This document shows, piece by piece, positions 10,417 through 29,874 of a stretch of DNA of 64,000 nucleotides. The translations under genes and the position numbers were made by a program. The notes below the pieces were generated by a model that had not been told where the DNA came from, ran no database searches, and saw only the letters and a program-made list of their open reading frames with translations. Positions within the stretch are counted from its first letter, which is position 1. Every line of letters starts with the position of its first letter. The DNA is from Escherichia phage FL31: the sequence record PP400782, one strand, 5' to 3'.

Positions 10417-10809
10417 CTACTTTTTAAAAGTTTTTTGCAAAAGTTTGATGATTTCGTCGACGTTGGTTTCATCTACGATACAATGGATTTTTGTTACACC
10501 TAAAGTTATACCTTCGTTAGTAGGTTGAGGCTTTACTAAATCTACCTCAGTAAAGTATTTGAACTCGTCATGATAAATCTCAAAATAAGTTTCAATTTCA
10601 CCACCGGCAGAACATACCGTACCGTCTTCCATAGTTACACTTACTACGTTTGACGTATCGCTATCATAATCAGGTTCCATTCCGTTTACAACAAAACTAG
10701 GCCCGTGGAGTTCAATCAATTTTAACATCTTAGCGTTATTGTGTGGTGCTTCTTGAACAAAGTCGTCTTTAAATAAAGGGTTAATGATATAAGATTTTCC
10801 GATTTTCAT
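10417..10809 (-). CDS. hypothetical protein (130 aa)
   Basis: ORF with GAGGAAAT SD. Confidence 0.45.
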   Translation of the reverse strand: MKIGKSYIINPLFKDDFVQEAPHNNAKMLKLIELHGPSFVVNGMEPDYDSDTSNVVSVTMEDGTVCSAGGEIETYFEIYHDEFKYFTEVDLVKPQPTNEGITLGVTKIHCIVDETNVDEIIKLLQKTFKK

Positions 10810-10838
10810 TTTGATTTCCTCATGTTGTTGATAGGTCT

Positions 10839-10867
10839 ATACTAACACATCCAGGTAAGAAGTAAAC
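10839..10867 (-). promoter_or_regulatory. early promoter-like element (-35 GTTTAC, -10 TAGTAT) with AGACCTATCAA box
   Basis: Minus strand GTTTACttcttacctggatgtgtTAGTATagacctatcaa. Confidence 0.4.
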
Positions 10868-10892
10868 AACTTTTTCGGCAATTTACAGATAC

Positions 10893-10916
10893 TCAAAAGG
10901 GAGACCGAAGTCTCCC
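10893..10916 (-). terminator. rho-independent terminator after gene 32
   Basis: Minus strand gggagac-UUCG-gtctccc followed by a U run, 7 nt past the gene 32 stop. Confidence 0.65.
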
Positions 10917-10922
10917 AATTTA

Positions 10923-11822
10923 TTATAGACCAGCTAACAGGTCATCGAGGTCGCCATCGTCAGAAGACGAGGAACTCATGAAGTCATCTTCAGTTTTTGC
11001 AGAACCAAAGGCTTCCATGTCTTTATCAAAATCGTCAAGGTCAGAAGCAACTTTATCTGCAACAGAAGCTGCTGCGGCTGCTGCACCACCAAGAGCGGCA
11101 GTACCAAGAACTTGATTAAATTTAGTATTCAATTCTTCAAACGATTTGAACTTATCTTTAGAAGTCATTTCAGAAAGGTCAACCATTTGTTCGAACAATT
11201 CTTTCTGGAAAGATTCATCATCAATGTTTGGAATCGCAGATTGATTCAGGAATTTAGATTCGTCGTAGTTACTGAAACCAGAAACCTGTTTAACTTTCAG
11301 CACAAAGTTAGCACCTTCCCATGGGCAAGTTACATCAACAGGAGTTTCACCCATTTCAGTATCGACTGCAATCATTGCATTGATTTTGTCCCAAATCTTT
11401 TTACCGAAACGATATTTGAATACTTTACCTTCATTATCTGGAGCTTGAGGGTCTTTAACAACCAGAATATTAGCCCAATAAGAAGTTTTACGTTTCAGTT
11501 GAGAATATTCAGTTTTGTTGGTATTGTACAGGTCATTTTTACTAATGTACTGACATACAGGACAAGAGTCATAATCGCCGTGTGTAGATGAACAGGTTTC
11601 AATATACCATTTACCATTTTTCTTGAACCCGTGGTTAACAAGAATTGTAAACGGAAGTGCGTCATCTGTTTTTGCCGGCAGGAAACGAATTACCGCTTGA
11701 CCATTACCGGATGCATCGAGTTTCAGCTTCCATTCACCTTTATCTTCTGAAGAGAAACCTTTGTTACCATTCAGTTTAGCCATCTGAGCTGCGAGGTCTG
11801 CGGTACTTTTACGTTTAAACAT
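10923..11822 (-). CDS. 32: single-stranded DNA-binding protein gp32
   Basis: 299 aa; zinc-binding region [11 protein letters not shown]; acidic C-terminus; matches recalled T4 gp32. Confidence 0.95.
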
Positions 11823-11902
11823 TTTATTTGCCTTTATTTAGATTATTAATTAAATTTTACAGTTGGTTGCTACGACACTTATACCTCGTAGCTGGTATGT
11901 TT
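11823..11902 (-). promoter_or_regulatory. gene 32 5' leader: AU-rich unstructured tract next to the start codon plus upstream hairpin (translational operator-like)
   Basis: mRNA-sense leader aaccaactgtaaaatttaattaataatctaaataaaggcaaataaaATG; 7-bp stem gctacga/tcgtagc upstream. Confidence 0.45.
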
Positions 11903-11910
11903 TATTTATA
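11903..11910 (-). promoter_or_regulatory. late promoter TATAAATA upstream of gene 32
   Basis: Exact TATAAATA on the minus strand; T4 gene 32 is known to have a late promoter. Confidence 0.5.
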
Positions 11911-11939
11911 CGGTAATTCTAACACAGATAAAATAAAGC

Positions 11940-12593
11940 TTAATACTTACATGATTTGATTGTTTCTATGAACAATTTCTTAGCAGCATTTCCATCGATT
12001 TGAAGTATTTTTCGATATGCCTTTAATTTGATAGAATAATTTTGCCAGACTAAGTTATCGGTGAGTTCGTCGTGCTTATCTATAATATTCAAAAATGAGT
12101 CCAACAATAAGAAAGTCTCAAATGAAATTATATTGCTTTGTAGCAATTTGAATATGTAGCTCGACTGAACGTTGTTATTATAATCAAATATCTCTTGAAG
12201 CGCACTAACTTCAACTTTCTTACTGAAATAGTAGATGTTACGTACGTCTTCAGCAAACGTCTCTTTAGCTTGTTTGAGACGTCCAATATATTCCCTATAG
12301 AAAACTAATGCATCAGCGTCTGATATCTCACCAATCCATGCGTCTTGGTTAGCAACTAAGTTGCTTATGAATATCAAGGTGAGTTCCTTCAATTTATATT
12401 TCTCTGCTAGTTTTTCAAAGAAATATTTATCTCGGCGTTTTTGATACGCATTATCCGAAACACGCATGCACCAGTTATATTTGATTACGTCATACCGACC
12501 ATTAAAATGTTGTTTGCACATCAAGTATAGTTTGTATACCGATTTTCCGTTAATATAACGTTCTCCATCAGGAGGCATGCGTATTTTAATCAT
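11940..12593 (-). CDS. 59: helicase loader gp59
   Basis: 217 aa; synteny between 33 and 32. Confidence 0.85.
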   Translation of the reverse strand: MIKIRMPPDGERYINGKSVYKLYLMCKQHFNGRYDVIKYNWCMRVSDNAYQKRRDKYFFEKLAEKYKLKELTLIFISNLVANQDAWIGEISDADALVFYREYIGRLKQAKETFAEDVRNIYYFSKKVEVSALQEIFDYNNNVQSSYIFKLLQSNIISFETFLLLDSFLNIIDKHDELTDNLVWQNYSIKLKAYRKILQIDGNAAKKLFIETIKSCKY

Positions 12594-12928
12594 AATAAGA
12601 AATCTAACGTATTAGTTTTTTCACCACGAGCAACTGACGGGCGAAGCATGTTTTCGTCAATTGCTTCGCTTGTAATTTTTTCAACAATTCCTGTAGGAAT
12701 AAATTTAGCAAATTGTGTTTCCGGAATAGAATTTTCTTCCAAGAAAGCAGTTGTTGCTTCTAAATAAGACATACCAAATTGTTCAACCATAGATTCGATA
12801 ATGAATCCGTTTTCTTGCCGGTCAAGCAATTTAGCGATATCATCTTTATCGTGTTTTACTGCTAATTCTTGTTCAGATAAACCGGCCTCATCAACCGGTT
12901 TAATATCACTTAGTGAAAACTGTGTCAT
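12590..12928 (-). CDS. 33: late transcription co-activator gp33
   Basis: 112 aa acidic protein; synteny. Confidence 0.8.
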   Translation of the reverse strand: MTQFSLSDIKPVDEAGLSEQELAVKHDKDDIAKLLDRQENGFIIESMVEQFGMSYLEATTAFLEENSIPETQFAKFIPTGIVEKITSEAIDENMLRPSVARGEKTNTLDFLL

Positions 12929-29801: not shown

Positions 29802-29845
29802 GCTAATTTCCTCAATTGATTAATGTTTTTGTAATCCATGAGAGC

Positions 29846-29874
29846 ATTATACTCTGCTCTCAAGAGTTTGTACA
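29846..29874 (-). promoter_or_regulatory. early promoter-like element for ndd (-35 TGTACA, -10 TATAAT)
   Basis: Minus strand TGTACAaactcttgagagcagagTATAAT; paralogous to cassette at 684-712. Confidence 0.45.

Follow-up and report, generated by a model that had tools for sequence, protein, structure and literature searches.

The operator of gene 32 is a textbook case of a protein that senses its own free concentration, its mRNA being repressed only once single-stranded DNA is saturated. The DNA analyzed here, a stretch of 64,000 nt from Escherichia phage FL31 (record PP400782; "the window" in what follows), carries a gene 32 directly preceded by a short intergenic region, and the question that this locus raises is whether the region is such an operator and, if so, of which type. 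The initial annotation, made from the sequence alone, had seen in it a late promoter, a 7-bp hairpin and an A/U-rich unstructured run, and had read these together as the leader through which gp32 represses its own translation. We conclude that the interval 11823–11939 is very probably the gp32 autogenous translational operator, of the RB69/T4 type, with repression in this phage expected from the near-identity to RB69, whose identical pseudoknot belongs to an operator that is known from earlier experimental work.

The gene 59–gene 32 leader and the gp32 protein

The source phage is an RB69-like T-even phage (Mosigvirus), as judged by a 401-nt query over the region, which matches Escherichia phage moha at 99.5% identity, the RB69 record AY301284 at 95% and the T4, T2 and T6 relatives at approximately 72–80%. 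The genes on the minus strand are arranged in the order rnh, dsbA, 33, 59, 32, frd.2, frd, td, and the features that delimit the leader are the following.

11940..12593, minus strand: gene 59 (helicase loader; PF08993 and PF08994)
11942–11940, minus strand: gene 59 stop codon TAA, the 5' boundary of the leader
11822–11820, minus strand: gene 32 start codon ATG, from the open reading frame and the sequence
10923..11822, minus strand: gene 32 (gp32, single-stranded DNA-binding protein, 299 aa), an open reading frame with a match to Pfam PF08804 (E = 4.7e-64)

Given the positions of the gene 59 TAA and the gene 32 ATG, 11823–11939 is exactly the 117-nt gene 59–gene 32 intergenic leader, and gp32 is both the repressor and the regulated gene product. 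The window gp32 differs from that of RB69 at 2 of 299 residues (99% identity) and is 88% identical to that of T4. To judge from its sequence, the protein retains the determinants of cooperative single-strand binding, namely KRKST at residues 3–7, the zinc site (ligands H64, C77, C87 and C90) and the Ser/Asp-rich acidic C-terminus; KRKTS at residues 110–114 is kept as well.

A compact pseudoknot in the leader

The perfect inverted repeat GCTACGA/TCGTAGC, from which the initial annotation had drawn its 7-bp hairpin, is indeed present (11892–11886 with 11875–11869); it does not form a simple hairpin but is stem 2 of a pseudoknot, the other stem of which (AUACC/GGUAU) had gone unseen. From 5' to 3' on the mRNA, the elements of the pseudoknot are as follows, with negative numbers counted from the start codon.

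11898–11894, minus strand: stem 1, 5' arm AUACC (-76 to -72), pairing with 11885–11881
11893, minus strand: loop 1, a single A, the same A in all 11 lineage types; geometry as in T4 and T2
11892–11886, minus strand: stem 2, 5' arm GCUACGA (-70 to -64), the 5' half of the hairpin first reported
11885–11881, minus strand: stem 1, 3' arm GGUAU (-63 to -59), sitting in the "loop" of that hairpin
11880–11876, minus strand: loop 2, AAGUG, the same sequence as in T4; 3–8 nt across lineages
11875–11869, minus strand: stem 2, 3' arm UCGUAGC (-53 to -47), the 3' half of that hairpin

The structure is thus a compact H-type pseudoknot with a stem 1 of 5 bp, a loop 1 of 1 nt, a stem 2 of 7 bp and a loop 2 of 5 nt; since stem 2 abuts stem 1 with zero junction nucleotides, coaxial stacking of the two is allowed. 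By itself, a perfect 7-bp stem is unremarkable, occurring 0.21 times per 117 nt in the window and in 13% of shuffled leaders. Compact pseudoknots of 12 bp with exclusively Watson-Crick pairs number only two in the 128 kb that make up both strands of the window. The other one, at about 29840–29872 on the minus strand, is probably a chance occurrence, situated between two small ORFs within an early-promoter-like TTGTAC-N17-TATAAT.

The minimum free energy (MFE) of the whole leader is no lower than that of shuffled sequences (z = +0.33), which is to be expected because MFE computation leaves out pseudoknots and because little of the leader is supposed to be structured; whole-leader MFE folding gives no independent thermodynamic support. 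An Rfam scan of positions 10800–12700 at E <= 10 returned no family on the mRNA strand of the leader. The sole overlap with the leader is an opposite-strand STnc410 match at chance level (E = 9.6; 13.1 bits, with the gathering score at 50), and the other hits are chance-level snoRNA-like and sRNA matches.

Conservation and covariation across lineages

The leaders compared were those of T4, RB69, nine further Mosigvirus genomes and approximately 60 IMG/VR contigs. Covariation was assessed on 11 lineage types, in an N-padded alignment kept in structural register, with the sequences picked by a pseudoknot finder; this alignment replaced a plain MAFFT alignment of the pseudoknot segments, in which the variable length of loop 2 had misaligned the 3' arm of stem 1. 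Standard pairs fill 94% of the cells, compared with 27–48% when the partners are slid by 1–3 columns, the former value being biased upward by the ascertainment through the pseudoknot finder and by the structure-guided alignment. This bias does not extend to compensatory changes at positions that the invariant CCAG...AGG anchors. Among the 11 lineage types, changes on both sides are found in 9 of 13 pairs, and the observed covariation score was reached by none of 500 shuffles. Stem 2 is paired in 100% of these lineage types with compensatory changes in five of its seven pairs, and RNAalifold returns it independently, likewise with 5/7 pairs compensatory. Within stem 1, covariation is seen at the three positions that vary among lineages, and both C-G pairs are constant. 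The initial annotation had suggested a comparison by covariance with the T4 operator, and this comparison finds conservation, both stems being kept with compensatory changes relative to T4 and T2. The stems vary among lineages as follows (5' arm/3' arm).

T4: stem 1 UGCC/GGUA, stem 2 GCUAUGA/UCAUAGC
T2-like: stem 1 UGACC/GGUCA, stem 2 as in T4
Marfa-like (L017): stem 1 GUCC/GGAC, stem 2 GGUGCAA/UUGCAUC
Serratia phage CHI14-like (L018): stem 1 AUGCC/GGCAU, stem 2 GGUGUGA/UCACAUC
L025, L092, L108 and L150: further variants of both stems, with the same geometry

L150 is a distant uncultured 151-kb phage with a gp32 that is only ~43% identical; its leader carries a compact pseudoknot, and megablast with this leader returned no close isolate, the only match being one of 48 nt in Campylobacter phage SSB genes. 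Leaders of the Acinetobacter phage AbTZA1 type (L140, L142, L114 and L119), together with L029 and L030, keep the stem 2 consensus and the H-type topology and have a longer stem 1 and longer loops. Many of the lineages lack a pseudoknot, among them the Enterobacter phage CC31 type (L008–L016) as well as L020–L028, L087–L091 and L133–L137; in the CC31 type, the end of gene 59 adjoins the Shine-Dalgarno sequence of gene 32. These pseudoknot-less lineages agree with the description of RB49 as a phage without the pseudoknot in a 2010 review (PMC3014915).

Within the genus, the 30-nt pseudoknot is invariant in 10 Mosigvirus genomes, and the substitutions, indels and one 9-nt duplication fall in the A/U tract, the length of which ranges from 43 to 55 nt. 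Read from these sequences, the variation is of the kind expected if a specific structure precedes a coating tract that tolerates sequence change.

The A/U-rich tract and the RB69 operator

Between the pseudoknot and the start codon lie two further features.

11868–11823, minus strand: A/U-rich operator tract AACCAACUGUAAAAUUUAAUUAAUAAUCUAAAUAAAGGCAAAUAAA, 46 nt (-46 to -1), with UAA, UUAA and UAAA repeats, ending at the ATG and containing the ribosome-binding site
11834–11831, minus strand: Shine-Dalgarno sequence AAGG (-12 to -9), with AGG at the same distance in all aligned leaders

The run of about 45 nt that had been described as A/U-rich and unstructured up to the start codon is well borne out. 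Its 46 nt lie within the about 35–50 nt expected of a T-even gene 32 operator and are 83% A+U, which places the tract in the top 0.1% of the 46-mers of the window, and their predicted mean unpaired probability is 0.68 (top 1%), compared with 0.45 +/- 0.08 in random contexts.

The corresponding leader of RB69 has been studied directly. Purified RB69 gp32 represses purified mRNA (PMC535899; Borjac-Natour, Petrov and Karam 2004, Virol J 1:4), and repression was observed in vivo as well as in vitro, with deletion of the leader or mutation of gp32 raising expression ~4-fold (PMC535899). In the same study, the pseudoknot was sensitive to RNase V1, residues A(-1) to A(-45) were hypersensitive to DMS and DEPC and were unstructured by DMS, DEPC and V1 probing, and gp32 footprints extended from U(-14) to G(-61). 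On the basis of its sequence, the window leader is an orthologue of this RB69 gene 32 translational operator.

Predicted promoters and 5' ends of the transcripts

The region upstream of the pseudoknot contains candidate signals from which gene 32 mRNA would be initiated.

11910–11903, minus strand: predicted late (gp55-type) promoter motif, of the T4 class that depends on gp55, gp33 and gp45; an exact match to TATAAATA
11941–11934, minus strand: MotA-box-like AAGCTTTA (a regex match), which extends into the gene 59 stop codon and would form the upstream part of a candidate middle promoter
11921–11916, minus strand: -10-like hexamer TAGAAT, 12 nt downstream of the MotA-like box

The exact late promoter motif is therefore where it had been annotated, at 11910–11903 on the minus strand. 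Its count in the window is at the chance level, with six occurrences against 7.9 expected and no enrichment; it is unchanged across 10 Mosigvirus genomes, and an exact copy lies 78–190 nt upstream of gene 32 in most of the lineages examined. What goes beyond chance in the leader is the full 12-bp pseudoknot, its covariation, its genus-wide invariance together with TATAAATA, and the positional recurrence of TATAAATA upstream of gene 32. As the late-promoter consensus spans positions -13 to -6 (PMC1524935), the placement of the motif predicts a late transcript start at 11897 +/- 1–2 nt. Such a start falls at the first nucleotides of stem 1 and would yield an RNA with essentially no single-stranded 5' extension.

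Just upstream of the late promoter there is probably a MotA-type middle promoter. Compared with the published middle-promoter consensus, (a/t)(a/t)(a/t)TGCTTtA-N11-13-TataAT (PMC1524935), the GCTT core of AAGCTTTA and the 12-nt spacing agree, and an A replaces the T before GCTT. In T4-type middle promoters, the box is centered near -30 and the -10 element has the form TAnnnT. The MotA-like box is unchanged in 10 Mosigvirus genomes, and the hexamer TAGAAT is TAAAAT in RB69 and most Mosigvirus genomes; by spacing only, a middle-mode start would be placed near 11909. Both sites have counterparts in RB69, for which Nolan et al. (2006) predicted two promoters in the 59–32 spacer, one of the late class (Pl:147067) and one of the middle class with a high score (Pm:147081, score 18.1) (PMC1524935). 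With the RB69 gene 32 ATG at 146956, these are orthologous to the late and middle sites of the window.

The close fit between the predicted late start and the pseudoknot edge, which would give the RNA a structured 5' end, lends itself to a different reading of the leader. In that reading, the pseudoknot would be mainly a 5'-end stabilizer or processing end that counters 5'-end-dependent RNase E and thereby makes gene 32 mRNA long-lived, the tract would be an efficient ribosome-loading region, and autorepression by gp32 would be minor or absent. A promoter adjoins the 5' edge of the pseudoknot also in the CHI14-like, L025, T2-like and L150 leaders, and in T4, by the account in the 2010 review, RNase E cleavage at -71 yields an unusually stable mRNA that has the pseudoknot (from -67) at its 5' end (PMC3014915). 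As the sole function of the leader, however, stabilization is improbable, with gp32 repression having been shown directly in RB69, a phage with an identical pseudoknot and a 99% identical protein. Because stabilization and repression are not mutually exclusive, the former is more likely an added role than an alternative to the latter, and the recurrent promoter placement, together with the similar end in T4, suggests that the pseudoknot may additionally act as a protective 5' structure.

A separate observation concerns RNase E, the consensus of which is RAUUW. A GAAUUA (AAUUA) string at 11918–11914, coinciding with the -10-like hexamer, was considered as a possible counterpart of the T4 -71 RNase E site.

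Probable autogenous control of gene 32

The leader architecture for self-repression by gp32 that the initial annotation had proposed is supported by the identity of gp32, by a pseudoknot identical to that of RB69, by the covariation of its stems and by the tract. For the phage itself, we infer repression, the transcription starts and nucleation at the pseudoknot. The sequence of events would be as follows. Messenger RNAs would arise from the late promoter TATAAATA, from the probable MotA-type middle promoter and, presumably, by read-through from gene 59. The 5' leader RNA would fold into the compact H-type pseudoknot, followed by the 46-nt single-stranded A/U-rich tract that runs through the Shine-Dalgarno sequence to the AUG. 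When in excess of the available single-stranded DNA, gp32 would bind at the pseudoknot and then, covering about 7 nt per monomer, polymerize cooperatively along the tract as roughly 6–7 monomers; the bound protein would block the ribosome-binding site and thereby turn off its own translation. The general model of gp32 action is set out in the 2010 review, which also presents an alignment of the RB69, T4 and T2 operators (PMC3014915). T4, like RB69, has published evidence of repression, of the probed structure and of gp32 footprints.

In a further reading, the operator would be of the RegA type, with the general translational repressor RegA, instead of or besides gp32, binding to the UAA-rich region by the ribosome-binding site. 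According to the review, RB69 RegA selects AAUAAUAAUAAnA as its SELEX ligands, and the SELEX consensus of T4 RegA is aaAAUUGUUAUGUAA (PMC3014915). The tract contains UUAAUAAUCUAAAUAAA, and aaAAUUGUUAUGUAA resembles the conserved leader motif AAAACUGUUAA. We nevertheless consider this reading very improbable: gene 32 is not among the RegA-repressed messages given as examples in that review (PMC3014915), RegA sites overlap or adjoin the AUG whereas the AACUGU of this leader lies at -42 to -37, and a likeness between short A/U-rich strings could be compositional. Stabilization of the 5' end and RegA binding could both be additional layers of control on top of gp32 autorepression. Finally, the hairpin might have arisen by chance as an inverted repeat in an AT-rich spacer, or might serve gene 59 as an intrinsic terminator, in either case without a role as regulatory RNA. 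This would be in keeping with the commonness of perfect 7-bp stems and the unenriched TATAAATA, but it is effectively refuted by the covariation of both stems across lineages and the published probing of RB69 (PMC535899), along with the genus-wide invariance of the element between varying flanks, the absence of a U-run after the stem and a terminator scan that gave no match at the leader.

The finding of an intact gp32 operator in another RB69-like phage confirms the annotation and introduces no new concept. The by-products of the comparison, namely compensatory support for both stems from ~11 lineages, the expanded-loop variants of Acinetobacter phages, a compact pseudoknot in a distant uncultured phage and the short direct repeats (AACUGU, AAUACA) conserved where the pseudoknot is lacking, are of modest value.

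A recurrent AACUGU motif in gene 32 leaders

A further element was recognized in the leaders by word enrichment.

11864–11859, minus strand: AACUGU motif (-42 to -37), in the 5'-terminal part of the tract

AACUGU is the most enriched word other than A/U-only words in gene 32 leaders and is conserved across those of the Tevenvirinae type. Of 33 lineages, 26 have it between -60 and -9, compared with ~4% of background windows; as the 33 lineages are related, these counts are not independent events. The consensus derived from 50 instances is A(A/C)AACUGU(U/A)AA, and ACUGU is invariant in 10 Mosigvirus genomes. Where a pseudoknot is present (the window, T4, T2 and RB69), the motif is located directly 3' of it. 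In leaders without a pseudoknot, the motif is directly repeated to give 2–4 copies, with a spacing that is often 10 or 13 nt. The three copies seen in the CC31 type lie within the 3' end of gene 59, each in a different reading frame, and the homologous gp59 codons of the window encode similar residues without the motif. Marine T4-like leaders repeat (A)AUACA instead, in an analogous manner.

The pattern AACTGT[TAC]AA has five matches in the 128 kb of both window strands, and the gene 32 leader copy is the only one upstream of an identified gene; one other match is followed 46 nt downstream by an SD-ATG pattern. The motif is not a general translation-initiation motif. In the papers searched, AACUGU is not mentioned in connection with gp32, and the observation may be new. 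One tentative interpretation, suggested by these sequence patterns and in our estimate rather unlikely, is that the pseudoknot is not the only specific element of these leaders and that the motif could serve gp32, RegA or an RNase as an undescribed unit of recognition or nucleation in place of the pseudoknot; an origin of the repeats by slippage, or leaders that are "unstructured by design", is a plausible and more ordinary explanation. According to the 2010 review, gp32 autocontrol in diverse T4-related phages needs more study (PMC3014915), and the AACUGU and AAUACA repeats are concrete candidates for how phages without the pseudoknot might gain specificity.

Comparison with known systems

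The closest known system is the RB69 operator (AY301284 / NC_004928), which occupies the same place between genes 59 and 32 and has an identical 30-nt pseudoknot, the same TATAAATA, the same MotA-like box and the same tract design. The two leaders differ by approximately eight substitutions and a 1-nt indel, all outside the pseudoknot, so that the tract measures 46 nt in the window and 45 nt in RB69, and the -10-like hexamer is TAGAAT in the former and TAAAAT in the latter. At position -8 the window has C where RB69 has U, with the loss of one pair from the small Shine-Dalgarno hairpin proposed for RB69, which is thereby weakened. Downstream of gene 32, RB69 has frd.3 (RB69ORF245c), which is missing at that place in the window.

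The operator model for T4 and T2 gene 32 is covered in the review (PMC3014915), and the NMR structure of the T2 pseudoknot is 2TPK. The window shares with T4 and T2 an H-type pseudoknot with a single A as loop 1, a 7-bp stem 2 and no junction nucleotide, followed by ACCAACUGU and then by an A/U-rich tract with UUAA(A) repeats that extends to the Shine-Dalgarno sequence and the AUG. Stem 1 is AUACC/GGUAU (5 bp) in the window, UGCC/GGUA (4 bp, one of them G.U) in T4 and UGACC/GGUCA in T2. In stem 2, a U-A pair of T4 and T2 is replaced in the window by C-G, a compensatory change. With its 46 nt, the tract of the window is longer than that of T4 (39 nt) or of the T2-like L006 (34 nt). T4 also has an upstream insertion, the homing-endonuclease gene segG, which overlaps the pseudoknot, and its TATAAATA comes no nearer to gene 32 than -158.

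Among more distant systems, the gene V protein of filamentous phages, which represses translation of gene II mRNA, is a comparable case of leader binding. The hairpin operator of T4 gene 43 and the pseudoknot operator of E. coli rpsO (S15), as presented in the review, likewise involve a protein that represses its own mRNA via a leader element near the ribosome-binding site, and the rpsO operator resembles the gene 32 leader also in being a pseudoknot (PMC3014915). The gene 43, rpsO and gene V systems employ other proteins and structures and have no sequence relationship to the gene 32 operator, and the gp32 mechanism is distinct from them in coupling a specific structure to cooperative, non-specific coating.

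Pseudoknot and A/U tract of the gene 32 leader

Within Mosigvirus, the alignment of ten gene 32 leaders (A3) shows an invariant pseudoknot followed by an A/U tract whose length ranges from 43 to 55 nt, the variation being documented there by Escherichia phage LF82-35 (L171), S143_2 (L166) and pEK20 (L168). The tract of LF82-35 contains a 9-nt tandem duplication, TAAATAATC, which points to replication slippage as one source of the repeats in this region. A compact pseudoknot is also present in an uncultured 151-kb phage with a gp32 that is only ~43% identical (leaders L150-L156 and L163), with TGATATAAT on its 5' side and a 40-nt A/U tract on its 3' side. Expanded-loop versions occur in L140/L142 (Acinetobacter phage AbTZA1 type), L114, L119 and L029/L030; these have a stem 1 of 5-8 bp and long loops, and retain the stem 2 consensus G(G/A)UNNNN...NNNNAUC.

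The window contains a single other compact, all-Watson-Crick pseudoknot-like pattern, ACTCT.GAGAGCA.GAGT..TGCTCTC (~29840-29872, minus strand). It falls within an early-promoter-like TTGTAC-N17-TATAAT sequence that has a small ORF on either side, and the resemblance is probably due to chance.

Candidate promoters and a terminator hairpin around gene 32

Two elements flank the gene:

11916-11941, minus strand: putative middle promoter of the MotA-dependent class, identified by its sequence pattern, AAGCTTTA, 12 nt, TAGAAT
10916-10899, minus strand: strong hairpin of the terminator type between gene 32 and frd.2, with the sequence GGGAGACTTCGGTCTCCC and TTTTG immediately after it

The candidate promoter, which does not appear in the initial annotation, overlaps the gene 59 stop codon, and its RB69 orthologue has been predicted as Pm:147081 (Nolan et al. 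2006, PMC1524935). Farther upstream, ~190-315 nt from gene 32 and inside gene 59, a MotA-type pattern, TGCTTGA-N12-TAT(A/T)AT, is well conserved in many lineages (leaders L006, L018-L020, L023, L031, L108, L114, L119, L133, L137, L140, L142 and L146). The homologous segment of the window (~12075-12110) reads TTGTTGGACTCATTTTTGAATATTAT and does not match the MotA-type search pattern, which requires a GCTT core.

Downstream, the gap between gene 32 and frd.2 is only 113 nt (10810-10922, minus strand); RB69 differs from FL31 in carrying an additional small ORF, frd.3 (RB69ORF245c), between the two genes.

A recurrent motif upstream of gene 32

Across the collected gene 32 leaders, the motif A(A/C)AACUGU(U/A)AA is found at positions -60 to -9 relative to the start of the gene in 26 of 33 lineages, compared with ~4% of background windows. 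In the FL31 leader it lies at the site given below, with other carriers among leaders L002, L006, L008-L028 and L087-L157:

11859-11864, minus strand: AACUGU-type motif

In leaders that have no pseudoknot, the motif forms 2-4 direct copies, often spaced by 10 or 13 nt, and in the CC31 type the copies at the 3' end of gene 59 are spread over three different reading frames. Marine-type T4-like contigs from IMG/VR (L033-L081), with distant gp32 genes (~40% identity), showed neither a pseudoknot nor ACUGU in the ~75 nt examined upstream of gene 32 start codons that are themselves only inferred. These leaders contain 2-4 copies of an (A)AUACA or AUAC direct repeat just 5' of the SD, as exemplified by L058, L067 and L081.

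Within the set of papers searched, none connects the A(A/C)AACUGU(U/A)AA motif to gp32; the motif, as it occurs in gene 32 leaders, is similar to the SELEX consensus of T4 RegA.
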